Position numbers and translations under genes: made by a program
Part shown: piece by piece, positions 18,819-39,639 of the stretch
How positions within the stretch are numbered: position 1 is the first letter of the stretch
Layout: each line of letters begins with the position of its first letter
IMG/VR virus record: IMGVR_UViG_3300037461_001312
Coordinates: 8,037 to 72,036 of that record
DNA from: a virus
Length of the DNA: 64,000 nt
Direction: 5' to 3' (one strand)
Notes under the pieces: generated by a model
Told to the model about the DNA's origin: nothing
What the model saw: the letters and a program-made list of their open reading frames with translations, nothing else
Databases searched by the model: none

Positions 18819-18838
18819 TAGGGTAATCTCAACCTCCG

Positions 18839-19174
18839 TTATACCAATGCGTACGTGTACTTCTCCGCCCCGTAAGCCGCCCTGAGCCACTCCGCCGCCA
18901 CGTTGTGATCGAAGTCCACGCAGGAGTCGATGACGACGCGAGCAGACGACGACTCCGGCCAGGTGTGGATGAACAGGTGTGATTCCGCGATGACGAGGCC
19001 GCAGCTGAGCCCCGGGGGAATGGACCGGGTGAACGGCTCCCCGACCGGTGTCACCCCCAGCACGCTGCACATGGCCTGGATGATCGCCTCGGTGAACCAC
19101 GGGTCGGACAGGCGCCCGCAGGCGCAGTTGATCAGGATGATGCGGATGGTCTTCCCCCCGTCTACCTCGTGCAT
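18839..19174 (-). CDS. speD: S-adenosylmethionine decarboxylase proenzyme (class 1b)
   Basis: GLS.GLVIAE|SHLFIHTWPE self-cleavage motif, downstream DSC with catalytic Cys. Confidence 0.9.
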   Translation of the reverse strand: MHEVDGGKTIRIILINCACGRLSDPWFTEAIIQAMCSVLGVTPVGEPFTRSIPPGLSCGLVIAESHLFIHTWPESSSARVVIDSCVDFDHNVAAEWLRAAYGAEKYTYALV

Positions 19175-19421: not shown

Positions 19422-22400
19422 TCACCTCCCCTCTTTCTCCCTCTGCCACCTCAGCTTGCGCACCATGGACATCACGTCCGAGGTCAGCATCCCCTCCCTC
19501 CTGAGGTGGTACACGATCTTGTTGTACTCCTCCGGGGGCATGACCTTCTGGTACGTGGTCAGCAGCTCGGCCTTCTCCCTGTTGGTCCTGGCGAACACGA
19601 TCATGTCCACCTCCCTGCTGTTCTCCGTCCTCAGGGCGTACCGGGTGTACATGTTCTTGAAGCTGTTCCACGACGTCTCTTCCCTGTCGATCGTCCCGTT
19701 CCTGACCAGCTCCCGGTAGAGGCTGTTCGCCGCGGTGGTCGTCGGCTTCTTCCCCTCGTCCAGCTGCTTCTCCAGGCTGTGCCAGATCGCCTGCCGCCTG
19801 TCGTAAGCCCTCTGGGACGCGGCGTTCTCCGCCTTGGTGGCGGTCCACTCGTACCTCTGGCGCTTGCCGTAGTCGGAGATCTGCCAGTAGGTCCAGGCCA
19901 TGGGCCCCAGGATCGGTACTTTCTCGGACAGCTCCGTGTACAGCTCCTTCTCCTGGTACGGCACCGTCTCGGACCGGAAGGTGAACAGTCCCGCCGGGTT
20001 CTTGCCCAAGATCCTAGCCCCCATCTTCTCGGCCGCGTAGCCGGCGAAGGTCGAGGCGATCAGCCACCTGTTCCCCGTCTTCATGATGTAGTCGGGCACG
20101 ATCGGCTTGCTGGTGAATCCATCATACGGGTTCGCCCCGCGCAGGAGGTCCAGGGTCTCCAGCGACAGCCCCAGGAGCGGGTGGACGCTGCCGTACGGGT
20201 TCGTGTCCAGCACGAAGTCGAAGAAGTTGGACCACTCCGTCGGGTTGTACTGGAACTTGTCGCTGTGGAGGCCCTCATAGATCAGGTTCACCATGCGGTA
20301 GAACACGCTGCCTATCATCTGCGCGCCGTAGTCCGGGGCGATGCGCAGGTAGGTGGACTCCCCCTTGTCGGTCATCCCCGTGGGGATGATGATGTTGACG
20401 CTCTTGTTGTACTCCGAGATGTTGTCGAAGAACTTCTTCCAGTAGTCCCCGAGCCAGCCGAAGCCTGCTGCCAGCACCAGCATCTTAGGCAGTATCGTGG
20501 TCTTCATCGTCTTCCACACATACTCCGAGGCGAATAGGTTCTTGCTGCCGTGGATCCGGTACTCGTCGGTCAGCGCGGACCAGTGCTCCCGCCAGCCTTC
20601 CTTGCCCACGTTGGAGAACATGAAGATGGAGTTGTACAGCCAGGCCCAGTTGCCGCGGCGGTAGATGTCCGGGGTCCCTGCCCGGTTGCGGATGTCGTAC
20701 GCCATCTTCTTCGGCGCCGCGACCCAGCCGAGCTCGTCCTTGAGCCACTTGAGCCGGTCGTCCTGCCTCTTGCTCCTAGACGCTATCGCCTCGAGACCAT
20801 CCTTCTCCGCCTTCAGCTTGTCCACGTACTTCTTGCTGAGGCGGTACGATGCGATCTTGGTCCAGGCTTCCGTGAACTGCCCGAACTTGTCTACCGGGGC
20901 CACGACGGCGTTGTAGAACTTCTTCCTCAGCGTGTCCGCCTGCTTCAGGTCCTTGCCGTACATGTACTGCATCTGCTTCATCCGGCTGACTGCCGCGTCG
21001 GTGGTCTCCCTGGTCGGGTCGAAGGCGCGCCCGGCCACCAGCATCTTCCCCGCCATCATCTCGTCCACGTCGGAGTTCCACAGGTCCTTGAAGACGTAGT
21101 CCCACGCGACGCCCCGGGAGGCTATCATCTCCTTGACGAGGGCGGGGATGGTGAACCCCCGCATCTTCTTGTAGGAATCCACCATGTCGCGGGGCAGGTT
21201 GCGGATGATCCAGACGGGATTGTAGCGAACGAAGATGCTCTTGGAGATATTGGATATGAACAGCGCCGTCTTGGCGATGTGATGGGCCATGTACGGGTCC
21301 GTCTTGAACTGCTTGGCCACCTCTGGGCGGACGTGGAACCCCTTGATGACGCCCTTGTGCATCATGATGATGGTCTCGAACCCGGTCGGGGCGTTCTCCA
21401 GCATCCCGCCGCGCCCGTGCTTCGCGTCCTTCACTTCCTCGTCGCCCCAGAAGGCGCGGAGGGCAGCGACGGTGGTCTTCACCGCCATCTTCTGGTGCGT
21501 CGCACGGATCAATGCCATGTCCTTCAGGACCGTGGCGAGGAACGGGCTCAGGAGGTCGTCGTCGAGGTTGCCCGTGGTCTGGTACACCTGCGGGCGCAGG
21601 CCCTTGAATATCCCCTGGTCGGTGAACAACTGGTCTATGTGCTTCGCGCCGATGAAGTGCACGTAGTCCTTGTTCGTCTTCATCAGCCTCAGGTTCTCGT
21701 CGCTCAGGATCTCGGACTTCTCCACGTGGGGGGTGACGTACTTCTGCCTCATCTCGAAGAGCTTCTCCTTCAGCTCCCCCATCGCGTGGAACTTCTCAGA
21801 CCCGACCTTGCCCTTCAGCGCCTCGTACTGGTCCGTCGCGGTCTTCAGCCGGTACCCGCCTGGGAACGCCTGCCCCTTGAGCTGGTACTCGATGACGCGG
21901 CCGTACTTCAGGTACGCGTCGAAGTCGTCCTTGTCGATGCCCTTCTCCACCATGACCTTGATGACCTGGTCGTTCACGTGGTACTGGTACCGCGCCATCA
22001 GGTTGTCCACATACGGCGCCTCGGACAGCCAGTACAGCGGGTCCCTCTCCGGGTCCAGCGTGATCCCCATCTTGCGCAGGCCCTTGATGGCCGTGATCGT
22101 GCGCTGGTTCTTGTCGATGAAGTGGAAGTAGAAGTCCTGGGCCCGGACCCGCCACCAGGCTTTCTGCGACAGCTTCTCCTCCTCCACCTCCTTGTCGAAC
22201 TTCGCTTTGGTGTCCTGGAACCCCTTGCGGGTCAGCTCCAGCCGCGCCTGGTTCAGCTTCACCGGGTCAGACAGGTCCGCCTGGATGTTGTTGTAGATGT
22301 TCATGACCTTGGGCATCTTGTGCAGGTACTCGAAGAACCCGGCGTAGAACTTCGGGGCGATCTTCTGCAGCAGTCCCGGGTCCTGCACCAGCATGCTGAC

Positions 22401-25400
22401 CGCGTCGGAGTACAGCTCCCTGGACGAATAGCGGTGGCGGCGGTAGGCGGGGTCGACATTGTCCTCGTCGAAGGGTATCAGGGTCTGGCTCACCTGCTTC
22501 AGCTCGTCCGTGATCTCCGGCGCGCTGGCCAGGTCGTGGAAGTGCTTCTTCATGAACTTCTTCAGCTTGGCGATGCGCCCGAGGATATTGCCCCTCGCCG
22601 GACCGATCAGGTGCTCGTCCATCCAGTCGACGATGCGGCCGATCTGCTGGGCTATGACGGACAGTGCCTCGTCCTCGCTCTGGAAGATCTTGCTGGACAG
22701 CTTCAGCTTGCCGGTCTTGGTGTTGAATCTCCCCTTCTCCCCGTACTTGGTGGTCAGGTCGGGGAGCAGGCTGAGATTGTCGAGGGATCCGCCCATTGCC
22801 TGCTTCATGAATCGCACCGTCTCCGGCATCTCCATCGCGCGGAGGCGGACGATGTTGTTCGGGTTCGTGGGGGGCTGTGAGATGTTGGTGGTCGGCTGGC
22901 CCGGGGGGCCGGTCGTCTGCTGGACCGTCATCATGTCCGTCTTGCGCACCTGCGGCCCGGGGGCGGCTGGGATCTTGGACGCCTCGCGCTCCTGCCTCTC
23001 CGCTATGCTGTCGAACAGGCGATCAGCCAGGACCGGGTTGCTGGCCACGTGGTCGGCGAGGAGTTCCCCCTGCAGGTCCCCGTGGTTCAGGACCACATCG
23101 TCGAGAGAAACCTTGGCCTCTGTGGCCAGGGCTGCGTGGAGATACTCCATCATGGCGCTGTACGCCGTAGTCATGTCTGACGTGTCGACGACGACATCCG
23201 CCGCCCGGAAGAGGGCCGCCATCTCGCGGGCGGTGTTCTCGTTGGGCCAGTACGAATTATCGTACTCGGCTTCCAGGCTCATGCGATCCCCCGCGTTGGA
23301 CAGGTCTATGATGGAGGCAAACTTCGGGTGCCTGTTCCCAACCAGCTCGAGCCTGTCCTCTATGCCGGTTCCCGTTCTTATCTCCTCCATCCTGTTCACC
23401 AAGTAGCTGGCCGCGTTGTACAGCTTCCCGACCCCGCTGCGCACGACCCTCTGGGCTTCGGCCATGACCTGTTTGGCGTTCTTCACCGCCTGAGCATTGA
23501 TGGATTTGATGGTGGACTCGTCTATGTACCCGTTCCTGTGCGCCACGTGAGTCCCCTCGTGGTGGAAGATGGACGGTGTGACCCGGCCCACCGCTCTATG
23601 GCCTATGACGATGAACCTGCCGTTGTCTATGCTGGACGCGACAACGTCGTTGAGCCAGATGATGTCCTCAAAAGACGATCCTTCCAGCACCTCCTCGTTC
23701 GCGTGGATCACGACGAGCCCGGTGCCACCGTAGGCGTTTCTCATCGTGCGCAGGAACCGCTGGAACCCGGAGACCGTGTTCCGTATCACCCCGTCTATTT
23801 TGACCTGGTGTTCGCCTTTAAAAGTTTCCCTTCCAACGAAGTGAGCTCCTCCTCGCTCGCCCTTAGCATCCTTTGCGAAAGCAGCGGCTCTTGCTGCGGC
23901 GTGGACCCCAGCTTCGCCAGAAACTGGCTGATACGCCTGGCCCGCTTGCGCAGGTCCGCCGACGCCTGCAGCACCGCCTTGCTCGGCTGCGGCTCGTCCA
24001 GGTCCGCCAGCGCCCGGAACGATTTGCTCTTGAGCAGCTTCGGATCTACCTTCAGCATATCCCTCTGCGGCCAGCTCCCCTCCTCCTTCTCCTTCTTCAT
24101 CCGGCACACCTACCTTTCTGAATATGGTTTGCACTGCATTTGGGGCGAACACCTGCCTCTGCAGCGCGGGGGTACGCTCCACGTAGCCCAGGTCCAGGCC
24201 CTCGAGCGCTTCCCACTCCGCCCTGCCCTCGGGGCTGCGGAGATCCAGGTCCTTGCGCGCCTCGACCGCCTGCCAGACACCCTCGACCCGGTTGAACTTC
24301 ACGGTCTTGCGCAGGTCCACCGCTCCCATGGGCTTGGTGATGGCGAACCTGTCCCCGCGGTTCATCAGCTGCTCCGTGTCCGTGCCCCGGGGGTACTTGG
24401 CGCGGAGATCCTTGCGCAGGCCCTCGACGGGGATGCTGATGTACACCGGCACGTTGGCCACGTCCGGGGCGAGCAGCCGGTTCATGGCGGTGAGCACTCC
24501 ATGCCTGGGGGTCTTGCCCTGGAGCTTGTCCAGCCGGTTCTCGAGATAGTTGATCGCGTGGGTATACCTCGCCTCGTAGCGCTTGTACCGCCTCTTGGTC
24601 TCCGGGTCCAGCTTGTCCTCTTTGACCCCGGTGCTCTTCGCCTCCTCGTCCTTCCTCAGCGCCGGGGCGATGGTGGCCATCTCCCCGTAGATCTGCTTCA
24701 GGAGACCGCCGACGCTCTCTATCGTATGCTGCTCCTCGATGCCGATGACGGTGAGGACCCGCTCCTCCGCCTCCCACTGGGCCCTGTCGTAGCGCTCCTC
24801 CGGGGTCATGCCCACTTCGCGCATGGGGATCTGCTTCACCTTCATCCCCTTGGGCACGGGGGTCAGGTCCTTGCCCTTGAAGCGTGCTTCCGGGACAGTC
24901 CTGGCGACCTCGGCGACGGTCGGCCCGGCCTTCAGCTGTGCCGGTGTCACCGCGGCCAGGGTCTTGGTCCTCTTGCCCACCGGCTCGATGGGACCGACAC
25001 GGTAGATCCACACCCAAGGCTTGCCGGAGCGGAACTTGTCCATGACGTAGACTGTAGACCCCGGGGGCATGCGCCCGGACAGGGCCAAGCCGCCGCCTGT
25101 CGTATCCTGCGGGTTGTCGTACTTCCCGCTGTTGTCCCGGCGCAGCACGCCTTTCTCGTCCTTGACCACGACCGTGCGCACCGTGCCGGACTCGGGGTAT
25201 CTGAGGAACTTCCTCGCGCCTATGAGCCATTCCTCGGAGCCGGGGGACATAGTCGTCTCTATCACGACCGCGTTCTTGGTCCCGCGGAGGCTGCCCTTGG
25301 CAGAGACCTCGACTCTCCCGGTCTTGGGGCTGATGACGGCGCGGTTGAACACGGGGATGAGCTCGTTCTCGACAGCGGAGAAGGGCAGCAGGCGGATAGT

Positions 25401-28400
25401 GGGCGCACCGCCGGCAGCGGCGGGGATTTCCATGTCCTCCAGGGTCTTCGGTGCGGCGACTTTCGCCTCCTTCTCCTTGGTACCTTTCCTCTTCTCCTTC
25501 TCCGCCTCCTTGGTGACCAGCCACTCGCCCGGGGTCAGCATCCGCATGAACCTGCCCTGGTACTTCCCCGCCTCCTCCACCAAGAACACGTTCGGGTCCC
25601 TGCCCCACTTGCGGCCGAGGAATTCGTACACAGTCTTGGTGGTGGTCTTCTTGGTGAACGGGTTCGTGGTCTCCACCTCGACCTTGTCGAAGTCGAGCCG
25701 GAGCCTGCCCTGCTCCTCCAAGTCCGCCGCCTCTCGGCCACTGAGTATTCCCCTCGTCTCTACGTACGGCGCCTTGCGGGCCGCTGCGGCTGCGGCGCCC
25801 GCCTCCTTCGGCTGCTTGGCCTTCCAGTACTCGTTCGCGGTCTTCAGATCCGCCACGTACTGCTTCGCGTTGGCGACCATGGCTTGGAGATCTGCTATCC
25901 CCTCCTGCGCGGTCTTCCAGGGCAGCCCGTAGGACACCTTCTCCAGCTCCTTGGCATCCGACCCGCGCTTGGTCCGGATCAGCCCCTCGAGGACTCTGAT
26001 CCTCGCGTTTCGGTCCTCTATATTCCTCTCTGCCGCCTGTGTCTTCTGTGCTACGACCCAGTCCTCCGGGTCCACCATCTTGTCGTTGTAGCTGATCTTG
26101 CCGGACATGGCCACGGTCCCGCGGACCATGGCCTCGGAGAAGCGCTTCTGCAGGTCCGCCGTGCCTTTGGGGACCTCTATCGGCGTAGACGCCCGCTCCT
26201 CGTATATCTTCTTCACCCCCGCCAGCCTCTCCGCCTTCGCCTGGCCCAGCGCCTCCAGCATGGTGAGAGAGCTGTCCTGCCTCAGGATCTCTATGGCACG
26301 CGCGCGGTCCCGGATGCTCTCGTTCATCGCGTTCGCTTCCGCGTCCGTGACCCCGGCGTACTCCTCTACGGCCGGCTCCTCCACTGCTACCGGCGCGGGG
26401 GTCTCACCCTTGGCTACCGCCTCTATCTGCTCTCCACTGACGATCGCCTCCAGCCTCTCCTGGTCCTTGGTCTTCTTCTCCTTTACTACCTTGACCGGCC
26501 CCTTCTCGGTGAACCCCTGCATCGCGATCTTGCGTACCAGGTCCTCCCGCTTGCCCTTGGCGTAGCCGGTGATGCCCATGTACTTGGCCAGTTCCCTGAC
26601 CCGCTTGACGGTGACGTTCTTGTCCCTGAAGACGTTGTAGATCTCATCCTTGGTCTTGCCTATGAAGGAGTTGTAGAACACGTCCGGGGCCGGGGGCTTC
26701 TCGGCCACCTTCTTCTGCTTCGGCGGCGCGGCCTTCACCTTCTCCTTGGCCACCTCGGCCTTGCCCGCGTTCTCCTTGGCGACCTGCTCCTTGATCAGGG
26801 GCAGCGCGTCCCAGGCGGCATCTAGCCCGGAGATCGCACGCACTTCCATGAACCGGTCGAACACTGTCTTATTGCCGAAGTGTTTCAGGTACTTCCGCTC
26901 GACCGGCCTGCCCATGGTCGTACCCGTCTGGGCCGCGTAGTCCGCCCGCTGCGCCGCCTTCTTGGCCTTGGCCGCTGCGGACGTGGCCAGCTGCTCCTCG
27001 ACGGTCCCCTTCCTGTATGCCTCCTCTGCCCTCCTCTCTCCCTCGTCCTCCATCCCCCAGACCAGCAGCTGGTCCCGGTAGTCCTGGTCCACCATCGCCT
27101 TGGCCATATCGGCTATCTCATCCGGGTCGGCGTACTTCGCATAGCGCCTGGCCAACGTCGCCATCAGCGCCTTCTCATCCTTGGCCTTCAGCGCAGTGGC
27201 GAACGCTTCCTTCTCCCGATCCGCCAGCTCCATGTCGCGCTTGCCCTCTGCGGCAGCGGAGGAGTCCTTCTCCTGCTGGGCCCGGACTCTCGCGATGTAG
27301 TTCAGCCTGTCCTGTTTCCTGGCCTCGAACTGCTTGGCGTCCTCCCCTGCCCTGGGCCCGCCCTCTATAGGCGTCAGCATCTCCGCTTGCCTGGCCAGCC
27401 TGGCCTCCACGTTCTCCTTCTCGGCCTTCTCCAAGGCCATCATGTGCTTCTCGGCTATAGTCTCCGCCTTGGTCTTCACGCCCTGTCGCTTCCTCACCGC
27501 CTCGGCGTGGGCGACGCGCAGCTTCATCAGGGCCTTGTCCTCTTCGATCTTGGCCAGGGGGACCTTGGCCTTCCTCAGCTCGTCTACCCTGTCGTCTATC
27601 TGCTCCTCGAGAAGTCTGACGTCCTCGGGGATGGTGGCCTTCCTCCACATCTCGTCCTCGAGGCGGGCGATCTCCTCGTCGATGCCGGTGGGCTCAGTGG
27701 CCTTGGCGACCGGGGCCTTGGCGACCGGGGCCTTGGCAACGGGCTCCTTCGCCGCCGGCTCTTTCTCCGGTACGACCGCTGCCGGGACCACCTTCTTCCT
27801 CTTCTCTATCCCCTCCTTCACCTGCTCCAGGGTATATTCCCCGGACTCCACCAGCCTGGTCAGCTCCGGCGCTTTGGCGACATCCATTCCTGCCGCGGTC
27901 AACGCCGCCTCGATCTCGGGCTGGACCGCCTTCGCCTCGGGCTTGGCCACCGGCTCTGGGGCCTTGGCTACAGGCTCCTCTACTACTTTCTCCTGCTCCT
28001 TCGCCGGGGCCTCCACCTCTATCTCCCCTTCCAGCACCTTCCCCAGCGCCCCCTTCGGCTGCTTCTTCTCGAACTTCTCTACGAACAATACCCTTATCTG
28101 CCTGCCCAGCGGGTCCTCCCCTATCACCTCCCCGGTATTCTCATCCGTATCCGCTCCCGTCCCCAGCCTCGCGTCTATCTCGTCCCACGCCTTGTCCTTC
28201 TCGGATATGGGCCTGGACATCTCGGCGGGGACATGGAGTATGCCGTCCTCGCCTATAGTCCCTGGCTTTACCGTTATCCCATGCTTGGCCAGCTTCTCGT
28301 TCCTGGTCGTGACCCACTGGTCCGCCATCTCCCTGGTCCATGGCGTGGCCTTCTCAGCCTCCGCCTCGAGCTCCTCGATGTCGAGCTCCTCCTCTACCTC

Positions 28401-29945
28401 TTTCTTGCGCTTCTCGGCTTCCTCCTTGGTGAGGCCCAGTGCCGACGTGGCTCCTTTGGACGCACCCGCGGCAAAGCCACCCGTTATGATGGTCAGGAAC
28501 GCTGTCGGTCCTATGACGCTGAGAGCCTCTCTGAGGATATCCGCTGTCGGGCGTATGCCCGAGTACTTCTCCACGGCCGCCTGCCCGCCAGCCTGCCCCA
28601 CTTCCGTACCTATCTCGACTCCCAGGGTCTTGAAGAAATCCATCAGCTTCTGCTTGCCGGCCCGGCCAGCCACGGCCGCCTCGTCCAAGCCCATGAGTTT
28701 GCCCAGGTACTTGGACCCGAAGTATTCGCCTATCGCCTCGATGATGCCGGTCAGCGCCGGGGCAGTGCCGTACGCCTTGGACCGCATGATCTCGGCTTCC
28801 ACCATCTTCCCATCTTTCTCCAGCTGATCCGCAGCCTCCAAGGCCAGCGCCTTGGTGTTCTCGTACTGCTGCATGCCGAAGGCGGAGGCAACGGAGAAGT
28901 CGCCGATTCTGTTAGCCATCTTGGCAGCTTTCTTCGCCTGGTCCAGCAGCGCCGCCGCCTCTTTCGCCTTGGCTGCAGCCTCTTCTACACTGCCTGCGGC
29001 CTTCAGCGCCGTCGCAACCTCGCCAACCGCCCTCGCGTCTTTCACCAGGCCACCTATGCCCATCAAGGATCTCAGACCCAGCTTTATGGCGCCGCCGGGT
29101 ATGGCCGACGGGCCGAACATCTCAGCCCCTTTGTAGGCTATCCAGTCCAGGGTCTCCTCAGGGGCTTTGCCGTACCACTCGTCGCCCTTCTTCTCCGCCC
29201 AGTCGGATATGCCCTTGCCCACACCGGCGAGCTCCTCGGCTCCCAGGACATCCCCGAAGAACTCCATCATGGAGCCGCCCAGGCCCGGGACACCAGTCGT
29301 GACGCCGCGGGCAAAGCCCAGCCCGGCGGACTTGGCAAAGGACCAGAGGCCGCCTGAGAGCTTGCTCTTCTCCGGCTCTTTTTGCTGTGGTGCTCTCGCT
29401 TCCAAGGCCCGTACTCTGGCCTTAGCCGCCTCGACATAGTCTACCCGACCTGCCCGTGCCTGCGGTCGAGGACCAAGAATCCTCTCCTCTATGCTCAGGT
29501 CTTCATCCCCCTGCTCGGGCTGTACATCCTGCGACATCCCTCCGGACTTCAGCCCGCGGGCTACGTACTCCTCCGTGTCATACGGCTCCCCGTACTTGTT
29601 TACTCCCTTCCTCGGCTCATTCGGCTGCCCACTGTTGTGCTCCCTCAGCATCTGGGCAGGCGTGTACCCCTTGCGCTTCCACTCCCGGATCTGGGCACCC
29701 ATCACGTCTTCCTGGTTCTGCGGGACGGTGATGTCCTTCTCCTCGCCGAAGTGGCGCGTGGACCAGTCCTTCCACGTCGAGTCCTTGGTGATCTGGTATT
29801 TCCCATACCCCTTCGACGGGCTCTCAACGTGATAATCGCCACGGGATCTCTCTGCCGCGGCGATCATCGACTTGATCTGCTCGACCTCGTCCTCGTCTTC
29901 AGTCCCCGGGGCCGGGCCGAGTATAGACTCCTCAATACTGAGCAT
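19422..29945 (-). CDS. Giant (3507 aa) polyvalent internal virion/ejection protein
   Basis: N-terminal lytic-transglycosylase-like segment (AAE...GKYQI...TW...HNSG...YV), long A/K/E/P-rich region, HEGTH motif, LPD38-like C-terminus; last large gene of the ejection module. Confidence 0.8.
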   Translation of the reverse strand: MLSIEESILGPAPGTEDEDEVEQIKSMIAAAERSRGDYHVESPSKGYGKYQITKDSTWKDWSTRHFGEEKDITVPQNQEDVMGAQIREWKRKGYTPAQMLREHNSGQPNEPRKGVNKYGEPYDTEEYVARGLKSGGMSQDVQPEQGDEDLSIEERILGPRPQARAGRVDYVEAAKARVRALEARAPQQKEPEKSKLSGGLWSFAKSAGLGFARGVTTGVPGLGGSMMEFFGDVLGAEELAGVGKGISDWAEKKGDEWYGKAPEETLDWIAYKGAEMFGPSAIPGGAIKLGLRSLMGIGGLVKDARAVGEVATALKAAGSVEEAAAKAKEAAALLDQAKKAAKMANRIGDFSVASAFGMQQYENTKALALEAADQLEKDGKMVEAEIMRSKAYGTAPALTGIIEAIGEYFGSKYLGKLMGLDEAAVAGRAGKQKLMDFFKTLGVEIGTEVGQAGGQAAVEKYSGIRPTADILREALSVIGPTAFLTIITGGFAAGASKGATSALGLTKEEAEKRKKEVEEELDIEELEAEAEKATPWTREMADQWVTTRNEKLAKHGITVKPGTIGEDGILHVPAEMSRPISEKDKAWDEIDARLGTGADTDENTGEVIGEDPLGRQIRVLFVEKFEKKQPKGALGKVLEGEIEVEAPAKEQEKVVEEPVAKAPEPVAKPEAKAVQPEIEAALTAAGMDVAKAPELTRLVESGEYTLEQVKEGIEKRKKVVPAAVVPEKEPAAKEPVAKAPVAKAPVAKATEPTGIDEEIARLEDEMWRKATIPEDVRLLEEQIDDRVDELRKAKVPLAKIEEDKALMKLRVAHAEAVRKRQGVKTKAETIAEKHMMALEKAEKENVEARLARQAEMLTPIEGGPRAGEDAKQFEARKQDRLNYIARVRAQQEKDSSAAAEGKRDMELADREKEAFATALKAKDEKALMATLARRYAKYADPDEIADMAKAMVDQDYRDQLLVWGMEDEGERRAEEAYRKGTVEEQLATSAAAKAKKAAQRADYAAQTGTTMGRPVERKYLKHFGNKTVFDRFMEVRAISGLDAAWDALPLIKEQVAKENAGKAEVAKEKVKAAPPKQKKVAEKPPAPDVFYNSFIGKTKDEIYNVFRDKNVTVKRVRELAKYMGITGYAKGKREDLVRKIAMQGFTEKGPVKVVKEKKTKDQERLEAIVSGEQIEAVAKGETPAPVAVEEPAVEEYAGVTDAEANAMNESIRDRARAIEILRQDSSLTMLEALGQAKAERLAGVKKIYEERASTPIEVPKGTADLQKRFSEAMVRGTVAMSGKISYNDKMVDPEDWVVAQKTQAAERNIEDRNARIRVLEGLIRTKRGSDAKELEKVSYGLPWKTAQEGIADLQAMVANAKQYVADLKTANEYWKAKQPKEAGAAAAAARKAPYVETRGILSGREAADLEEQGRLRLDFDKVEVETTNPFTKKTTTKTVYEFLGRKWGRDPNVFLVEEAGKYQGRFMRMLTPGEWLVTKEAEKEKRKGTKEKEAKVAAPKTLEDMEIPAAAGGAPTIRLLPFSAVENELIPVFNRAVISPKTGRVEVSAKGSLRGTKNAVVIETTMSPGSEEWLIGARKFLRYPESGTVRTVVVKDEKGVLRRDNSGKYDNPQDTTGGGLALSGRMPPGSTVYVMDKFRSGKPWVWIYRVGPIEPVGKRTKTLAAVTPAQLKAGPTVAEVARTVPEARFKGKDLTPVPKGMKVKQIPMREVGMTPEERYDRAQWEAEERVLTVIGIEEQHTIESVGGLLKQIYGEMATIAPALRKDEEAKSTGVKEDKLDPETKRRYKRYEARYTHAINYLENRLDKLQGKTPRHGVLTAMNRLLAPDVANVPVYISIPVEGLRKDLRAKYPRGTDTEQLMNRGDRFAITKPMGAVDLRKTVKFNRVEGVWQAVEARKDLDLRSPEGRAEWEALEGLDLGYVERTPALQRQVFAPNAVQTIFRKVGVPDEEGEGGGELAAEGYAEGRSEAAQEQIVPGAGGPGRAAAEQGGAAGVGGPAQAGQAYQPVSGEAGVHAAARAAAFAKDAKGERGGAHFVGRETFKGEHQVKIDGVIRNTVSGFQRFLRTMRNAYGGTGLVVIHANEEVLEGSSFEDIIWLNDVVASSIDNGRFIVIGHRAVGRVTPSIFHHEGTHVAHRNGYIDESTIKSINAQAVKNAKQVMAEAQRVVRSGVGKLYNAASYLVNRMEEIRTGTGIEDRLELVGNRHPKFASIIDLSNAGDRMSLEAEYDNSYWPNENTAREMAALFRAADVVVDTSDMTTAYSAMMEYLHAALATEAKVSLDDVVLNHGDLQGELLADHVASNPVLADRLFDSIAERQEREASKIPAAPGPQVRKTDMMTVQQTTGPPGQPTTNISQPPTNPNNIVRLRAMEMPETVRFMKQAMGGSLDNLSLLPDLTTKYGEKGRFNTKTGKLKLSSKIFQSEDEALSVIAQQIGRIVDWMDEHLIGPARGNILGRIAKLKKFMKKHFHDLASAPEITDELKQVSQTLIPFDEDNVDPAYRRHRYSSRELYSDAVSMLVQDPGLLQKIAPKFYAGFFEYLHKMPKVMNIYNNIQADLSDPVKLNQARLELTRKGFQDTKAKFDKEVEEEKLSQKAWWRVRAQDFYFHFIDKNQRTITAIKGLRKMGITLDPERDPLYWLSEAPYVDNLMARYQYHVNDQVIKVMVEKGIDKDDFDAYLKYGRVIEYQLKGQAFPGGYRLKTATDQYEALKGKVGSEKFHAMGELKEKLFEMRQKYVTPHVEKSEILSDENLRLMKTNKDYVHFIGAKHIDQLFTDQGIFKGLRPQVYQTTGNLDDDLLSPFLATVLKDMALIRATHQKMAVKTTVAALRAFWGDEEVKDAKHGRGGMLENAPTGFETIIMMHKGVIKGFHVRPEVAKQFKTDPYMAHHIAKTALFISNISKSIFVRYNPVWIIRNLPRDMVDSYKKMRGFTIPALVKEMIASRGVAWDYVFKDLWNSDVDEMMAGKMLVAGRAFDPTRETTDAAVSRMKQMQYMYGKDLKQADTLRKKFYNAVVAPVDKFGQFTEAWTKIASYRLSKKYVDKLKAEKDGLEAIASRSKRQDDRLKWLKDELGWVAAPKKMAYDIRNRAGTPDIYRRGNWAWLYNSIFMFSNVGKEGWREHWSALTDEYRIHGSKNLFASEYVWKTMKTTILPKMLVLAAGFGWLGDYWKKFFDNISEYNKSVNIIIPTGMTDKGESTYLRIAPDYGAQMIGSVFYRMVNLIYEGLHSDKFQYNPTEWSNFFDFVLDTNPYGSVHPLLGLSLETLDLLRGANPYDGFTSKPIVPDYIMKTGNRWLIASTFAGYAAEKMGARILGKNPAGLFTFRSETVPYQEKELYTELSEKVPILGPMAWTYWQISDYGKRQRYEWTATKAENAASQRAYDRRQAIWHSLEKQLDEGKKPTTTAANSLYRELVRNGTIDREETSWNSFKNMYTRYALRTENSREVDMIVFARTNREKAELLTTYQKVMPPEEYNKIVYHLRREGMLTSDVMSMVRKLRWQREKEGR

Positions 29946-29962: not shown

Positions 29963-31426
29963 CTACTCGGACAGCTTAGCAAGCTCCTCCTCCAATCTCC
30001 TGGCTGTAGCTTCGTCCTTTCTCATCCTCGCTCGTCGTATCCCATACTCCAGCCTCCTTCGCTCCTCCGCCTGCTTGGTCGGCTCAATCCACTGCTTGTA
30101 AGGGATGTGACCTGTTGCGTTCGGGGGGGCCATTCCTACTCCAGGCCCTGCCATTAGCCGGCCTCCTGGAGCGCGCGGCACCGACACTGGCCTGGGCCCT
30201 TCCTCTCCCTGCTCCCGCTCCGGCTTAACCGACACAGGCTTCCTCTCCTTCTTCAGCTCCTCCGCCTCTCTCCCTATAACCCCCCTCATCTGCTCCACTC
30301 CCACCCTGGCCATGGCAATCTTCTGCTCCCTGGGAATATTCATTGGGAGGAACTTTCGCAGTAGCCCTTCGTACAGAATCCGGTCCTGGCCCATGACCCG
30401 GTACGGCGCGTCTAACTCATCCTTATCCTTCAGCTTCTTGACTATCTCCCTCTGTCCTTTCGGGCTGTTCACCTTGGCCACGCTGAGGCCCAAGACTTCC
30501 TCGCTGTGCCTCTTGTACATATTGTCGTATCCCTCATCAATCACCCTGGTGCGTTCCCTGGCCTGCTCCTCCGTCTCGTTAGCAGGACCCCCGGGGTAGA
30601 ATCCCATCTTATCCTTCTCTCCGAACTGCTGCTTCATCCGCTTCTCTTCCAAGCCGTGACGGAGCGTCAGGTTCTTCTCCGCGTGCGACAGGGCCTGGTA
30701 GTCTATCTTCTCCTGACCCTTCCTCAGCTCGGTCGCCCTGTTGCTGAATCCCGAGGCAGCGTTCAACAGTCCCTTCCTGCTTTTCTCGTCCGGAGCCTCT
30801 TCAGCTTGGTTCTTCAGCCCCTCGGCAGCCCTGTCCAAGGCGTTCGCGTCATCGAAGAGCCACTTCATCTTGCCTGGGTCTATGGACCTGTTGGCGAAAT
30901 CCCACCTTTGCCCGGTTTTCCTGTCATACAGGTCCCACCCGCCTTTAGGGTTCATGCGCACCAGTGCGGATCCGTCATCGCCCATCAGGGTGTGAGCACT
31001 GTTATAGTACTTCATGAACGTGGCCGCGTCAGGCTTTCTCCCCCGGCTGGTGGCTAATTCTTTGTATTTGCTGAAGGCCTGGGACGCGCTGGGAACATTC
31101 CCTGTCTTCTCGTACTCCTCCAGCAGCGGGCCTACTGACTCAGACATGATGTCCTCGTCCAGCTGCCCCTCCTGCCTCCGCGTCTCCTCCGCCTCGGAGA
31201 TCTTCACCTGCCTCTCCCGCAGGGACATCTCCTTGTCCACCTGCTTCTGCCTCTCCATAAACTCCTGCTTCCTGCGGTCCATCTCCTGCTGCTGCATATA
31301 GCTCTGCACCGCTTTCCAGCCAGAGTCGCCCAGCGCTCCTGCGGACCTGGGGTCGGATGCCCCGGCGAAGGCCGAGAGCGCTACAGGCAGTAGCTGCTGC
31401 ATGTCGACGTTGTCGAAGATTCCCAT
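29963..31426 (-). CDS. Putative ejection/internal virion protein (487 aa)
   Basis: Amphipathic N-terminus, charged helical body; position between the gp14-like gene and the giant protein. Confidence 0.6.
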   Translation of the reverse strand: MGIFDNVDMQQLLPVALSAFAGASDPRSAGALGDSGWKAVQSYMQQQEMDRRKQEFMERQKQVDKEMSLRERQVKISEAEETRRQEGQLDEDIMSESVGPLLEEYEKTGNVPSASQAFSKYKELATSRGRKPDAATFMKYYNSAHTLMGDDGSALVRMNPKGGWDLYDRKTGQRWDFANRSIDPGKMKWLFDDANALDRAAEGLKNQAEEAPDEKSRKGLLNAASGFSNRATELRKGQEKIDYQALSHAEKNLTLRHGLEEKRMKQQFGEKDKMGFYPGGPANETEEQARERTRVIDEGYDNMYKRHSEEVLGLSVAKVNSPKGQREIVKKLKDKDELDAPYRVMGQDRILYEGLLRKFLPMNIPREQKIAMARVGVEQMRGVIGREAEELKKERKPVSVKPEREQGEEGPRPVSVPRAPGGRLMAGPGVGMAPPNATGHIPYKQWIEPTKQAEERRRLEYGIRRARMRKDEATARRLEEELAKLSE

Positions 31427-31438: not shown

Positions 31439-31972
31439 CTATCCTCCTAAGTAATCCGCACCGCCCCAGGTGCTCGGGTCGTTGTACCCGTATCCTGAGC
31501 TCGGGTAATACATCGGCTGCTGCTGCTGCACCTGGTTCGCCGCCCTCCACATGAGGGGCGCAGAGGCTATCATCCCTGCCGACAGCGCACTGGGCTGCAC
31601 GGGCTGGTTCGGTATCGCCCCGTGCGGGGAATACAGCGTGTTGAGCGCCCGCATCTGCGGCCCGTACATGCCGGGAAATGTCTGTCCGCCGAAGTTGACG
31701 TTCATCCCCGTGGGCATGCTGCGGATCTGCCCGAGCAGCCGCTCTTGGATATCGGACGGGATGTTCTGCATCGTGTACATCGGGCGGCCCCCGGACTTGC
31801 TGTCCCCGTCGTCCTGGGTCATAGCCCCCAGCAGGGTGGCCGCACCCATGGCGATGTACGGAGCCGCCGCCGCCCAGCACCGGGCTACCGGGCCGGAGTA
31901 CTCGTAGGAGTCCTCCTCTTCCACCTTCCCGGTCGCGATGTCTATCACTATTTTGTTATAGATCTTTCCCAT
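31439..31972 (-). CDS. Ejection protein, T7 gp14-like N-terminal motif after a 31-aa leader
   Basis: True start ATG 31972 (AGGAGGAG RBS): MGKIYNKIVIDIATGKVEEEDSYEYSGPVAR-CWAAAAPYIAMGAATLLGAM. Confidence 0.75.
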   Translation of the reverse strand: MGKIYNKIVIDIATGKVEEEDSYEYSGPVARCWAAAAPYIAMGAATLLGAMTQDDGDSKSGGRPMYTMQNIPSDIQERLLGQIRSMPTGMNVNFGGQTFPGMYGPQMRALNTLYSPHGAIPNQPVQPSALSAGMIASAPLMWRAANQVQQQQPMYYPSSGYGYNDPSTWGGADYLGG

Positions 31973-31974
31973 CT

Positions 31975-32466
31975 CTACATCTCCTCCTCTCTGCACCTCG
32001 CGTCCATCGTCTCCTTCTCCAGCTTCTCCGCATCGGTGACTCTCCTCACCAAATACCCCTGTAGCTTGATCTCCTTCCCATGCTTCTTGAACAGCTTGAT
32101 CCACGCTGAGGGATCCCGGTACGTGATCCACCAGATGTCCTCCGTCCCCAGCTTCTCCTCGATCATGGAGTAGATCTTGGGCGTGATGCCGCTGTTCGGA
32201 GTGTACGCGTGGTCGATCACGATCCTCTTGCCGGTCGGGAGGATGTACAGGGACGCGATGATGAACCCCACCGGGGAGTTGTCGTCGTTCAGCACCATGC
32301 AGGACAGCTTGAACGGGTTGTGGCACTCCCGCCTGACCTGGGCCAGGATGTCCTGCGGGCTGTCGTGGTCACCCGACTTGGCGATATACTTCGGGATCAG
32401 GCTCTCCAGCAGCACCTTTTCGTACTGCCGGAACGTCTTCATTGTCGCTATCCGCTTTATTTTCAT
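31975..32466 (-). CDS. Putative GNAT-fold acetyl/acyltransferase (T7 gp13-like position)
   Basis: About 160 aa; beta-strand pattern MVLNDDNSPVGFIIA...IVIDHAY; directly upstream of the gp14-like gene. Confidence 0.5.
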   Translation of the reverse strand: MKIKRIATMKTFRQYEKVLLESLIPKYIAKSGDHDSPQDILAQVRRECHNPFKLSCMVLNDDNSPVGFIIASLYILPTGKRIVIDHAYTPNSGITPKIYSMIEEKLGTEDIWWITYRDPSAWIKLFKKHGKEIKLQGYLVRRVTDAEKLEKETMDARCREEEM

Positions 32467-33352
32467 GGAGCTCCCACTCGTCTATCTCCCGTTGGTATGG
32501 GGATTTGAAGAAATACGCGTACTGCAGGTTCTTCCTCGTGCTGGCCTCCAGGTGCGACAGGTCGTACATCTCGTCGTTGCCGAACCAGAACACCGACTGC
32601 GCCGTGTTGGGGTTCAGGTACGCCAGCCCCGGGGGCACCTGCATCTGCACGGGCCGGGGGGTCGCCAGGCAGAAACCGTTCTGGGACGGCGGCGTGTGCA
32701 GGGGCAGGTGGACCTTGTAGGGGAACACGGCGTACTTCGGGAACGCCGCCGACATCGTCCGGACCAGGCACCCTGCGGCCTTGGGCTGGACGTACGGGGA
32801 CACCATCTGCGTGGCGAACACGCCGTCTTTGGCCAGTTTCCCCTTGCGAATTTCCTCGAAATGTTCTACAGTATACAAGCCAACCGAGTAAGGGGCAGTC
32901 GGGTCAGTATAATCGGCAATGATAAGCTCATATTCCCCGGCCGTATCCTGCTCCGCGACGTCTCCCCTTACCCAGTCGGCCGCGTCGGCGTGAACGATGT
33001 CCAGCCGACTATCGTCAGGAAAGTCCAAGAAAGTCCGCGCGGTTTCCACCACATCCGGATCAAGCTCCACCAGAGTCAGCTTCTCTATGGGAAACACGGC
33101 CAGCAGCAGCCGGGCGAGGTAGCCGTCGCCGCCGCCGAGTACAGCCACGCGGCGGGCGTGCTGGGTGAACATGTACGGGATGATGCCCAGGCACTCGTGG
33201 TACCGGTGCTGGTCGTAGGTGGTGAGCTGGACTATCCCGTCGAGCGTGAGGATGCGCCCGAGGCCTTGGGCGTCCTCCCACACTTGGATCAGCTGGTACC
33301 TGCTGCGGTACTCGTAGATCCTCTTCAGTCCTTTGATGTCTTCCATTTTCAT
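32369..33352 (-). CDS. speE: Spermidine synthase (aminopropyltransferase)
   Basis: LDGIVQ, YHE, VLGGGDG, VELDPDV, ADYTDP motifs; start MKMEDIK at 33352 (ATGA-coupled). Confidence 0.9.
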   Translation of the reverse strand: MKMEDIKGLKRIYEYRSRYQLIQVWEDAQGLGRILTLDGIVQLTTYDQHRYHECLGIIPYMFTQHARRVAVLGGGDGYLARLLLAVFPIEKLTLVELDPDVVETARTFLDFPDDSRLDIVHADAADWVRGDVAEQDTAGEYELIIADYTDPTAPYSVGLYTVEHFEEIRKGKLAKDGVFATQMVSPYVQPKAAGCLVRTMSAAFPKYAVFPYKVHLPLHTPPSQNGFCLATPRPVQMQVPPGLAYLNPNTAQSVFWFGNDEMYDLSHLEASTRKNLQYAYFFKSPYQREIDEWELHENKADSDNEDVPAVRKGAAGEPDPEVYRQVG

Positions 33353-34539
33353 GCGGTTGTGTACCCCAGCATCTTGTCGTACGGAGCGTACCAATTGGGC
33401 ATCTGGTTGCTTATGCCGGTCCCGTAGTTACCATAGTTGTTGAACAGGTTCGTGTTCCAGTTCGCCGTAGCAGTGCCCAGCTGCCCGAGATTGTTTATGT
33501 TCCCCTGGTTGTAGTTCCCTGCGGCCGTGCCCAGGTTCTGCCAGCCCGTAGCTATATTCCCCTGCAGGGGGCTAAGAATATTGTACGCGCTTGTGATCGC
33601 CTGCAGCTGGTCCCCCCGCAGCTTCGCCCCGACATTGGCCATCCCGACCTGGTTCGCCCCGTACTGGTTGCCTATCGTGCCATAGTTGCTGTATCCGGTC
33701 GTGAGGTTGTTCTGGAAGTTCTGCATCTGCTGGCCCAGAGTCTGCCACCCGGTGAGGGCGTTCCACTGCCACTTGTTGTACAGGCTCCCCATCGTGTCCG
33801 TTATGCCCCTGTCCGCCGCGCTGCCGCTGGCGTACCCGGTGCGGCCCAGTGCCCGCATGACGGCCTGGACCTCAGGCAGCACCGCGCCGCGGAACGCCCC
33901 CATGTCGGACATCGCGTTGAGGATCGCCTCCTGCTGCGGGGCGTACTCCAGACCCTTGGCCTTGATAGAATCCAGGTACTCTTTCAGAGGGCCTCCGTAG
34001 AACTCCAATCCTCCGCCGCCGCCCAGCGAGCCCAAGCCATTCTGCAGGCCGGTAATGAAGTTAGTAAGATTCGTCCCGGTGCCTTTCATGTTGGCCAGCG
34101 CCGTCTCTGCGTTACCTGCATAGGGCAGGCCGGCAGCGACGTTGCTCTGGATCATGTTGTAGATCTCGTTGCCGTACGGGAGCCCTTGGGCCTGCATTTG
34201 CTGCAGCAGGGCCCACTGCGCCTGGTTCGCAGGCAGGCCGGCTATGGTATTGTACATCTCATTAGGCGTGGGGTAGTTCAGCGTCGGTGCCGCAGTGGCG
34301 TAGGCGGGCGCGCCCACGGTCGGAGGAGGAGCAAGCGATGTCCTGGGGTCGGCCCATCCGTTCCAGCTATAGTCTGGGTAACCAGGACCCGCAGCGCTGT
34401 CCCCAAGATATCCTCCACTAGAGTCCCCTGCCGTACCCATGCCGTAGCACTGCGCCACCGGCCCGTCGTACTCGTAGTAGTCCTCGTCCTCTATCCTGCC
34501 TGAGTCGATGTCGATCACTACCCTGTTGTATATCTTCAT
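33349..34539 (-). CDS. G/N/Q-rich ejection (pilot-like) protein with a 30-aa leader ending GPVAQC
   Basis: MKIYNRVVIDIDSGRIEDEDYYEYDGPVAQ-CYGMG; low-complexity Gly/Asn/Gln/Ala composition typical of DNA-transfer proteins. Confidence 0.75.
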   Translation of the reverse strand: MKIYNRVVIDIDSGRIEDEDYYEYDGPVAQCYGMGTAGDSSGGYLGDSAAGPGYPDYSWNGWADPRTSLAPPPTVGAPAYATAAPTLNYPTPNEMYNTIAGLPANQAQWALLQQMQAQGLPYGNEIYNMIQSNVAAGLPYAGNAETALANMKGTGTNLTNFITGLQNGLGSLGGGGGLEFYGGPLKEYLDSIKAKGLEYAPQQEAILNAMSDMGAFRGAVLPEVQAVMRALGRTGYASGSAADRGITDTMGSLYNKWQWNALTGWQTLGQQMQNFQNNLTTGYSNYGTIGNQYGANQVGMANVGAKLRGDQLQAITSAYNILSPLQGNIATGWQNLGTAAGNYNQGNINNLGQLGTATANWNTNLFNNYGNYGTGISNQMPNWYAPYDKMLGYTTA

Positions 34540-34549: not shown

Positions 34550-35917
34550 CTATACGTACCTTCCTATCGCCGTCTTGAACGTACCAGTCCACACCGCCGT
34601 GCCCTTCACGACCCGGATCTCCGTCATCCAGCCGGCCAGGTCGTAGTTGTCCGTGCGCAGCAGCAGCTTCGTGTTGGCGTCCGGCACCGACCCGCCTGTG
34701 GGTACCGAGAACGAGACTGTATCAGCTGTAACCGAAAACACGTTGGATGCGCTGATGCGAATCTCGTCCATGGACCCATCGAAATACGATACTCCATTCC
34801 CATTAGACCCGAAAGTGAGGCTGCCTGTCAGCGTGTCCGTGCTGGTGTCGGTGGTGGATGCTATCCGCGTCCCGTCCTTGTACAATCCGTAGTAATTTCC
34901 CACCTTGCACAAAGCTATGTGGTGCCAGTCGCTGTCGTCTATTTCCCCAGCGAATCCCGTGTCTATGATGATCGGGCCTCCGTCCACGTGATACTGCCTA
35001 AAGACCAGACCGGACGTGTGCACGTGGTATATTCCCCACCACTCTCCAGCCCCTTCATACTGGATCACCAAGTACTCGGTACCCGCGTGATCATCGAACA
35101 ACACCCAAAAGTCTATGGTGTAGTTGGTGCTGGAGGACAGCTCCCAGTCCGCGCTATCCGCAAAGCTGATGTCGTCGTCGGTGCCGTCAAATCTCAGCGC
35201 CTTTGTCCCGAACTTGTAGGCAACCGCGCTCATAGCCGTGTCACTACCAATAGTTGCCGCGTGCGCACTGCTGCTGAAGTCGTACACGTCCGTGGTCGCC
35301 AGCCCGCCGCCGAATCTGGCCGCCCCATTCAGGTTCGGCATCGTCACGTCCGCCGTGAACGTGTGCACCGCAGTGCCGTTGACGCATATGGCCCAGGCGG
35401 TGGCCACCCCGCCCCAGCCCCGGATGAGGGCCACGTGGTACCAGGTGCTCACTGCCGGGGCCCATGTGCCGTACTCGTTGATCAGGCTGACGCTGCCGCT
35501 CACCACCTGCAGGCAGATCTTGTCCAGGTCGTGGTCCACGAAGAACCAGACGCGGTCGTCGTTGGCCCCGGCCTGGTAGTAGAACGTGTGGATGCCCGTG
35601 ACCGCGCTGAACCGCACCCAGAACTCTATGGTCAGGTTGCCCGTGCCGAAGTCCCAGTCCGCGTGGTCATTTATCGTAATATAGTCCCCGTTCCCGTCGA
35701 ACAGGATGCTGGACTTCCCGAGGTGCGACACGTACTGTGCCGTGTCGTGCTGGGCATTGGTGCCACCGTTCCCTGGGCTGTGGGTGCCAACAGAGTCGGC
35801 GAATGTCGTGCTCGCATCCGCCGCGTCGGAATGCACCAGCAGCTTGCAGTTCGCTCCCTTCTTCAGGGTGTTGAACCTCCCCGCATCGCCCCAGACATTG
35901 ATGGATCCTACGCCCAT
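34550..35917 (-). CDS. Tail protein with two LamG/ConA-like lectin domains
   Basis: Repeated FDG..D.I, TIEFWV/TIDFWV, WYHVAL/WHHIAL, MDEIRIS/MTEIRVV motifs. Confidence 0.85.
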   Translation of the reverse strand: MGVGSINVWGDAGRFNTLKKGANCKLLVHSDAADASTTFADSVGTHSPGNGGTNAQHDTAQYVSHLGKSSILFDGNGDYITINDHADWDFGTGNLTIEFWVRFSAVTGIHTFYYQAGANDDRVWFFVDHDLDKICLQVVSGSVSLINEYGTWAPAVSTWYHVALIRGWGGVATAWAICVNGTAVHTFTADVTMPNLNGAARFGGGLATTDVYDFSSSAHAATIGSDTAMSAVAYKFGTKALRFDGTDDDISFADSADWELSSSTNYTIDFWVLFDDHAGTEYLVIQYEGAGEWWGIYHVHTSGLVFRQYHVDGGPIIIDTGFAGEIDDSDWHHIALCKVGNYYGLYKDGTRIASTTDTSTDTLTGSLTFGSNGNGVSYFDGSMDEIRISASNVFSVTADTVSFSVPTGGSVPDANTKLLLRTDNYDLAGWMTEIRVVKGTAVWTGTFKTAIGRYV

Positions 35918-38754: not shown

Positions 38755-39639
38755 TCAGTCATCACTCCCTCGTATCTTGGACTGTCCTCCGCCCGGCTTG
38801 CGGCGTACCCGGTCCTTGATGATGGTGATCACGTCCTGCTCCACTCTCCCCCGCAGCGCTTCCTCCACGCTGACATTGTACTCGTCCCGCAGCAGCGCGA
38901 GCTGCGTCACGTAGCCGCGGACGACCTCGTCGAAGATGCCGTTGTAGGGCAGCGTGTCGGAGGAGGAGGACAGCGCCGACGGCTTGTAGAAATAGAGCCC
39001 GTAGAACACCACCGTCGCCGTGTCCGGGCACGGGCCTATCAGCAGCGACGTGTCTGTCAGGAGGGAGTACACCTCCGGGTCCGTCGCCGTCTCCGTGTAG
39101 TCGCTGGCGTACTCGTCGTACTCCACCTGCTGCAGCTCGTCGTCCGCCGTCCAGGGCTTGACGATGACGAAGGTGTCCGTCGACGGCGTGCCACCGAAAG
39201 CCATGGTGGTAGCAGTCACCGTGCTGCCAACATAGTCGGTCACGTACCTCTGCTGGTCCGCGTAGGTCCCGGAGGTAAGCCGCAGGATCATCCCGTTGTA
39301 CGCGTCATTTGTGCTGCTGGCTGAGGAGTCCAGGGTCAGCGCTGTGGACGACGCGGCGGACGCCAGCGTGCCCGCGTGCTCGTAGGTCCTGGCGTAGAGG
39401 GCATAGAACGAGTTGAAGTCCGTGGGCAGCGTATACTTCGGGGTGTACGCGGTGGACTCCGTCGTGGTCCACTCCTTCATGCCCAAGTCGGACTTGAACC
39501 GGGCCAGCACCGGAGCGATCATGCCGCTAAGACAGCGGTTCATGTAGGCGATCAGCTCATTGGTCCTTGCGGTGGACTCCGACGAGGTGAACTTCAGGTC
39601 GTACCCTACAGACGTGATGATGCTCGCTACTATCGTCAT
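38755..39639 (-). CDS. Head-tail adaptor (gp11/gp4-like) with inserted beta-rich domain
   Basis: LIAYMN...YTLPTDF...IGPCPD pattern; position before the nozzle gene. Confidence 0.7.
   Translation of the reverse strand: MTIVASIITSVGYDLKFTSSESTARTNELIAYMNRCLSGMIAPVLARFKSDLGMKEWTTTESTAYTPKYTLPTDFNSFYALYARTYEHAGTLASAASSTALTLDSSASSTNDAYNGMILRLTSGTYADQQRYVTDYVGSTVTATTMAFGGTPSTDTFVIVKPWTADDELQQVEYDEYASDYTETATDPEVYSLLTDTSLLIGPCPDTATVVFYGLYFYKPSALSSSSDTLPYNGIFDEVVRGYVTQLALLRDEYNVSVEEALRGRVEQDVITIIKDRVRRKPGGGQSKIRGSDD

Follow-up and report, generated by a model that had tools for sequence, protein, structure and literature searches.

Two unrelated putative ejection proteins of an uncultured short-tailed phage begin with the same 31-residue β-hairpin tag, which is called the leader here. 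Both proteins are encoded in a stretch of 64,000 nucleotides from the IMG/VR virus record IMGVR_UViG_3300037461_001312 (positions 8,037 to 72,036 of that record), which was analysed at its full length and is referred to as the window. Leader 1 (34447..34539, minus strand) is a 31-residue N-terminal module ending in GPVAQC that scores 65.6 bits with a hidden Markov model (HMM) of the leader, and it opens a 396-residue protein with a Q/N/G-rich core (33349..34539, minus strand), a putative ejection protein that is possibly P22 gp7-like. Leader 2 (31877..31972, minus strand) is a 32-residue module of the same kind that starts with MGKIYN and ends in GPVARC, and it opens a 177-residue protein (31439..31972, minus strand), an open reading frame (ORF) whose core starts with CWAAAAP and a hydrophobic helix.

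The leader and its cores

A BLASTP comparison of both proteins aligns residues 2-32 of the first with residues 3-33 of the second (20/31 identities, 28/31 positives, E=1e-13). The likeness ends right after the Cys, and outside the leaders the 396-residue and 177-residue proteins share no significant similarity by BLASTP. A six-frame motif scan in combination with the leader HMM determined that the 64-kb window holds exactly two copies of the leader. At the DNA level the two leaders share about 74% identity and differ by many synonymous changes, so their likeness is old and selected at the protein level and does not stem from a recent duplication. An initial annotation, made from the sequence alone, had described two leaders of about 31 residues at these positions on the minus strand and an abrupt end of the similarity after the Cys; the ORFs and the BLASTP alignment confirm both points.

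The leader belongs to a family that appears to be both undescribed and large. A leader profile was built from 14 leaders and used in an exhaustive search of 1.84 billion cluster representatives, which returned 1056 protein clusters at E<=1e-3, of which 174 pass E<=1e-10; the matched part is nearly always residues 1-34. The leader-bearing proteins are 36-992 residues long, mostly 200-500, and the phages that carry them span 36-60% GC. The leader consensus is MKIYNK-VVID-x-TG-E-V-LEEDSFEY-x-GPVA-x-C, and among the best 149 matches of the profile the near-invariant columns are M-K-I-Y, V-I-D, T-G, E-E-D-S-F/Y-E-Y, and G-P-V/I-A. The residue after the leader is Cys in 127/149 (85%) and Ala in 15/149, followed by K/G and a Gly/Ser run. 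No match to the leader was found in 50,697 GenBank phage records (tblastn, E<=1) or in Pfam and PHROGs, and the profile found nothing among PDB sequences. Among 185,579 prokaryote species genomes the leader occurs once, on a 5.7-kb contig of a metagenome-assembled genome. This single occurrence, together with the absence from reference collections, indicates that the leader belongs to uncultured, apparently non-temperate phages.

The proteins that follow the leader are highly diverse. The leader was removed from 115 representatives of at least 150 residues and the remaining cores were clustered by BLAST linkage, which gave at least 36 unlinked families, while the leaders themselves are about 60% identical. 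The view of the initial annotation that a common leader is carried by variable cores is therefore borne out on a far wider set (1056 clusters, at least 36 unrelated core families). A G/S-rich linker (K/G plus GGG) opens the core in 70/115 representatives, a hydrophobic helix directly after the Cys is found in 6/115, as in the 177-residue protein of the window, and the C-terminus is hydrophobic or Gly-zipper-like in 43/115, similar to that of P22 gp7. The AlphaFold2 (AF2) model of the 177-residue protein has predicted local distance difference test (pLDDT) values of 93/97/90 in the first three 10-residue blocks and features two 9-residue strands, at residues 2-10 and 17-25. Past this hairpin the model is a low-confidence region with a helix at residues 38-51 and a poorly ordered remainder. 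The leader is thus predicted to be a self-contained acidic β-hairpin that is tethered to variable cargo.

Relatives of the window phage reveal that the core of the 177-residue protein, core 2, also exists without the leader. The loci L002/L026 and L027-L029 keep the gene order SpeE, GNAT, core 2 and a homologue of the 487-residue protein that follows, with SpeE 80-86% and the GNAT protein 51-81% identical to those of the window. Core 2 in these loci has no leader and starts with M-A-W exactly at the boundary, as it does in P0004 and L030. The leaderless orthologues P0002, P0004 and P0165 all start with MAW, and the cores of three relatives are 60-76% identical to the window core. These orthologues argue that the leader is a separable add-on that is dispensable for the core's own function, that the pairing of GNAT and core is independent of the leader, and, since they lack the Cys, that in this lineage the Cys comes with the leader. 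The closest counterpart of leader 2 and its hydrophobic helix is the N-terminus of P0040 (67% identical), a 781-residue protein of another SU10-like phage, which fits modular exchange.

The 396-residue protein has no Pfam or PHROG match. Its core is conserved at about 60% in L002 and L028; among relatives from IMG/VR and JGI metagenomes only the L002 contig was found, and it ends short of the N-terminus of the homologue. Among the named families, language-model features place it nearest to P22_gp7, which serves as a lead only. A comparison of the core-1 family with P22 gp7 by hhalign was not significant (E=0.076) and PF25688 gave no Pfam match at E<=0.1. The core-2 family compared with T7 gp14 reached an hhalign probability of 1%, which is not significant, and PF24072 gave no Pfam match. 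A phmmer search of the PDB with both whole leader proteins found nothing meaningful. The designation of the two as ejection proteins in the initial annotation is thus supported by synteny, but not by detectable homology, as neither the Pfam families T7_gp14 and P22_gp7 nor hhalign gave a significant match.

Genes around the leaders

All genes of the operon that carries the leaders are on the minus strand. In order of transcription they are a SU10-like adaptor of 294 residues (38755-39639; PF24175 SU10_adaptor, 34.4 bits, above the cut-off), a 705-residue protein that is assigned to the nozzle position from its place in the operon (36613-38730), a 225-residue protein, a 455-residue protein with two LamG/concanavalin-like domains (34550-35917; PF13385, 5.4e-24), the leader-1 gene, SpeE, a 163-residue ORF, the leader-2 gene, a 487-residue protein and a 3507-residue protein. 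The adaptor and the nozzle-position gene put the operon in a podovirus tail/ejection module, and the flanks of the leader genes in L021-L024 contain the same Pfam families as the upstream tail genes of the window. SpeE and the 163-residue GNAT-fold protein are the sole genes between the two leader genes, as the initial annotation had read them, with SpeE identified by PF01564 and the GNAT-like gene by its fold model. The overlapping or closely spaced layout that it described is also found: the leader-1 gene and SpeE overlap by ATGA, SpeE and the GNAT gene overlap by up to 98 nt, the gap between the GNAT gene and the leader-2 gene is 2 nt, and the gap from there to the next gene is 12 nt.

The genomic context of the leader was determined for 19 distinct leader genes, the window's two and those of L001, L003, L004, L006-L008, L010-L012, L015, L017, L018 and L021-L025. 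The context is always a virion module, with the usual order of SU10-like portal, major capsid protein, adaptor, a 460-620-residue nozzle-position gene, a small gene of 127-197 residues, the leader gene, a 360-650-residue gene and a very large protein. The small gene lies immediately 5' of the leader gene in 15/19 cases, nine of them with an acetyltransferase signal, and in several loci its stop overlaps the start of the leader gene by 14-17 nt, which suggests translational coupling. The upstream gene of L015 matches PF00583 with 23.1 bits, above the cut-off of 20.7. Matches to phrog_1249, "acetyltransferase", were obtained for L007 (2.9e-6), L021 (3.2e-4) and L008 (8e-3), and the L003 gene features weak matches to Acetyltransf_3 and to phrog_651, the family of P22 gp14. 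Additionally, jackhmmer ties L003 and L008 to L007, and L004 and L006 to L015. The canonical acetyl-CoA loop (Q/R-x-x-G-x-G/A) is degenerate in the alignment of the window GNAT protein and most upstream genes. Window leader 1, which follows the LamG gene, and the leader genes of L011 and L012 have no adjacent GNAT, and the call of the upstream gene in L017 is not confident.

SpeE (32369..33352) is well supported as a spermidine synthase family member (PF01564, E=4.6e-23, 82.2 bits vs a cut-off of 22.9), with a GGGDG motif in its translation. The initial annotation saw in this arrangement an undescribed system similar to those of ribosomally synthesized and post-translationally modified peptides (RiPPs), with co-encoded enzymes that would acylate and/or aminopropylate the new N-terminus. 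In the full form of this model, SpeE would aminopropylate that N-terminus or another residue of both proteins. The likeness consists of a conserved leader, variable cores and a GNAT-fold gene nearby, and for a part of SpeE in it there is the local gene order in this window and nothing else. SpeE homologues are found only in the close relatives L002 and L027-L029 and in 0/17 other leader loci, so SpeE is not part of a leader-linked system, and in the relatives that do have SpeE the adjacent core is without a leader. SpeE also retains the standard signature of a small-molecule aminopropyltransferase. RiPP precursors are short peptides, whereas the window proteins have 177 and 396 residues and the cores in general are full-size structural proteins of 76-960 residues; a Pfam search gave no RiPP recognition element. 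The proposed check of co-occurrence with the leader HMM gave a divided answer: a small upstream gene accompanies 15/19 leader genes, nine with an acetyltransferase signal, but GNAT-like genes also stand beside leaderless cores and SpeE is missing from the other 17 loci. The full RiPP-like model with SpeE is accordingly regarded as very improbable. SpeE is a lineage-specific polyamine auxiliary gene that was inserted in the operon and is unlinked to the leader.

The 163-residue GNAT-fold protein (31975..32466) has a different explanation. The podovirus operon for internal virion proteins (IVPs) features an acetyltransferase-like, non-structural IVP-A that precedes IVP-B (T7 gp14, P22 gp7), and this pair is known for T7, P22 and epsilon15 (Hardies 2016, PMC4819975). 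The ORF has no Pfam match; however, its AF2 model (pLDDT 76) gives GNAT matches in a Foldseek search of the PDB, the best with E=2.6e-6 (2eui) and a TM-score of about 0.6. The matches include RimI, AAC(6') and polyamine acetyltransferases (SSAT and DpA among many GNATs). The protein does not match PF11090 (T7 gp13) or PF11039 and reaches phrog_1249 only at E=0.14, and an hhalign comparison of the upstream-gene alignment with P22 gp14 (DUF2824) was not significant. IVP-A is defined as a small acetyltransferase-like protein between nozzle and IVP-B, and both the fold of the 163-residue protein and its place directly 5' of the leader-2 gene agree with this. The gene is this phage's expected IVP-A (T7 gp13 / P22 gp14), assigned by AF2 fold and synteny, and not a new tailoring enzyme. 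A reading as a polyamine acetyltransferase was considered and dropped, as the gene stays at the place of IVP-A in loci that lack SpeE. In its long form, the GNAT ORF shares 98 nt with the 3' end of SpeE (32369-32466). Its N-terminus is conserved from residue 1 in L027-L029 (tblastn, 81% identical) and modelled with a pLDDT above 90, so the overlap appears to be real dual coding.

The association between the GNAT gene and the leader, as the initial annotation proposed it, holds in part. A small GNAT-like gene stands immediately 5' of the leader gene in most loci and often overlaps it; however, GNAT genes are also found beside leaderless cores and are missing beside some leaders, which shows that the leader is not simply a recognition tag for GNAT. 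The leader might still recruit the GNAT-fold IVP-A, which would acetylate or acylate the exposed Cys or the N-terminal Met-Lys and thereby direct the protein to the core or to host membranes. The coupling to most leader genes and the 85% conservation of the boundary Cys are consistent with this, T7 gp14 and gp6.7 both start with Met-Cys and lie beside or under control of the gp13 module, and the literature searched gives no biochemical role for IVP-A. Such a modification is nonetheless unlikely: the window protein and most upstream genes have a degenerate acetyl-CoA loop, GNAT persists in relatives beside Cys-less cores that start with MAW, Ala replaces Cys in 10% of leaders, and there is no adjacent GNAT at window leader 1, L011 or L012. 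A predicted complex of the GNAT protein with the leader (residues 1-40) had a score of 0.01, which is no evidence in either direction.

Downstream of the leader-2 gene, the coiled-coil-rich 487-residue protein (29963..31426) takes the IVP-C position (T7 gp15 / P22 gp20), a role that is assigned from synteny only, and it is kept in relatives. The giant 3507-residue protein (19422..29945) probably takes the IVP-D position (T7 gp16), again from synteny. It has no detected Pfam domain, and its residues 187-489 resemble, with 31% identity and E about 1e-17, the N-terminal part of the giant proteins that L008 (8756-12102) and L009 encode 3' of their leader genes. A 202-residue ORF just 3' of the giant gene (18492-19100) has no Pfam or PHROG match at E<=0.01. 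LamG-type domains like those of the 455-residue protein are likewise present in giant proteins of virions (phrog_701, phrog_3545); the position of this gene directly 5' of leader 1 is unusual, as elsewhere in leader loci that position is taken by the nozzle gene and then IVP-A.

Three other leader loci have features of their own. In L010 an endonuclease VII/HNH gene (5397-6017; PF02945, E=2.8e-20) separates the GNAT-like gene from the leader gene at an otherwise tight junction, which looks like the insertion of a homing endonuclease. L011 (6001-6753) features a Cys-less leader variant (…GPVELAAGG) on a 250-residue protein directly after a 380-residue head-module gene, with no small upstream GNAT-like gene within the locus. 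L012, from a phage of 36% GC, carries the leader on a 107-residue proline-rich protein (3593-4169) between the large terminase and a T7-type portal, followed by an 82-residue leaderless paralogue that shares a C-terminal ...R-[RK]-N-L-L-G motif (E=6e-6). These small proteins recall T7 gp6.7/gp7.3 in position and size, and a BLASTP comparison with T7 gp6.7 was not significant. In the window's head module, genes for a 438-residue protein with a methyltransferase domain of the S-adenosylmethionine type (53576-54892; PF13489, 2.5e-13), an HNH endonuclease (55593-56123; phrog_5046, 4.8e-14) and a weakly GT9-like protein (61662-62657) sit among the terminase, portal and capsid genes.

Precedents and candidate functions of the leader

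It is already known that ejected proteins can share a removable tag at the N-terminus, and the pairing of a GNAT-like protein with IVP-B is known as well. Phage T4 uses a capsid targeting sequence (CTS), N-terminal propeptides of 10-19 residues that are common to unrelated internal proteins, load diverse cargo and are then removed (PMC9026906). As in IPI, IPII, IPIII and Alt of T4 (PMC9026906), the leader is a short shared N-terminus on unrelated proteins that are, in T4, packed in the head and ejected; two such proteins are present in the window and at least 36 core families among the 115 representatives. The prohead protease gp21 cuts the CTS, which binds to the scaffolding core, whereas the leader is a 31-residue hairpin found in podoviruses and has no sequence homology to it. 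No protease family match was found among the window's head-module genes.

P22 gp7 is the closest precedent. The P22 GenBank record states that its N-terminal 20 residues are cleaved by host OpdA, and in the translated sequence the cut falls just before KGGKGG, which resembles the Cys-K-G-G-G junction of the leaders. Like the protein of leader 2, gp7 is an IVP-B-type protein directly after an acetyltransferase-like IVP-A (gp14), and its leader ends before a K-G-G-rich stretch; unlike the leader, its 20 residues contain no Cys, and the window proteins do not match PF25688. T7 shows the same order of nozzle, small GNAT-like non-structural gene (gp13), small ejection protein (gp14) and large internal proteins. 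T7 gp14 starts with M-C-W-A-A-A-I-P while core 2 after the leader is CWAAAAP, with only the N-terminal CWAAA-P motif in common; gp14 has no leader, however, and neither PF11090 nor PF24072 is reached by the window proteins. M-C also opens gp6.7, a further ejected protein of T7. With these precedents at hand, the idea of an undescribed RiPP-like system finds no support, as the acetyltransferase-like IVP-A and IVP-B pair, the cleaved leader of P22 gp7 and the shared propeptides of T4 were already described.

Two other explanations of the Cys were rejected. A lipoprotein lipobox is not consistent with the lack of a signal peptide, the net charge of about -5 of the acidic hairpin, and the Q, R, L or E before the Cys. 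Autoproteolysis at the Cys was dropped because the Gly-rich sequence after it is variable and 10% of leaders have Ala.

By analogy with these systems, the leader is best read as an assembly or targeting handle for proteins of the capsid interior or ejectosome, probably released at the Cys/Gly-rich junction and accompanied by IVP-A as an assembly factor, a reading that we hold to be somewhat likelier right than wrong. Uncultured podoviruses with SU10-like head and tail genes would place the hairpin on packaged, ejected proteins, IVP-B of the gp14/gp7 type and others. The leader would bring otherwise unrelated cargo into the procapsid or core, as the T4 CTS and the 20-residue propeptide of P22 gp7 do, and it may then be removed, or at least flexibly detached, at the junction, as in P22 gp7 and T4. 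IVP-A would act as a non-structural factor in assembly, as T7 gp13 and P22 gp14 do.

Several observations weigh against the targeting handle. The data speak for the modularity of the leader, its distribution and predicted hairpin, the GNAT fold, the synteny, the leaderless orthologues and the missing link to SpeE, whereas targeting, proteolytic removal and any part that IVP-A plays in handling the leader are inferred. No cultured phage among the GenBank records carries the leader, the leader HMM does not detect the gp7 leader in a six-frame translation of P22, so homology to that precedent is unsupported, no gene of the window was recognised as coding for a prohead protease, and the prediction of a GNAT-leader complex gave no answer. 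Additionally, IVP-A-like proteins are only 10-18% identical across loci compared with about 60% for the leader, which suggests that the conserved partner may be something other than IVP-A. Candidates for this partner are the leader itself, if it forms an oligomeric barrel, the portal or core, and a host factor that is itself conserved, for instance a peptidase.

That a stable hairpin is so strongly conserved would fit equally well with a structural element that is retained in the virion. The hairpins of an ejection-protein oligomer would then form a β-barrel ring, or dock by strand addition on the portal or core, and such a permanent docking domain would fix the position of the protein in the virion and perhaps the order of exit. 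The hairpin is predicted very confidently and as an autonomous unit, it is conserved to an extreme degree in phages that span 36-60% GC, tethered docking domains typically have a flexible G/S linker of this kind, and no phage protease was found. A permanent domain is nevertheless a possibility of the second rank. Close relatives have leaderless core orthologues and T7 gp14 is leaderless, so the core works without the leader; P22 gp7 loses its leader; and the search of PDB sequences with the leader profile found such a hairpin in no solved virion structure.

A dedicated maturation system, in which IVP-A binds the leader, the protein is clipped at the Cys, and the exposed Cys is acylated or acetylated so that the ejection proteins are primed for membrane insertion, is judged slightly less probable still than modification by GNAT as such. 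T7 gp14 and gp6.7 carry a comparable N-terminal Cys once Met is removed. If true, such a system would give T7 gp13 and P22 gp14 a biochemical function.

The present analysis corrects an attractive over-reading of the operon, as the polyamine enzyme proves to be a passenger and the GNAT-fold protein a known component of the module. The leader provides a handle on how podovirus ejection proteins reach the procapsid and on what IVP-A does. It can be searched for as a marker of ejection or cargo proteins when podoviruses from metagenomes are analysed. It also hints at a binding partner that is conserved in its turn, and engineered cargo could be packaged with the leader as a tag.

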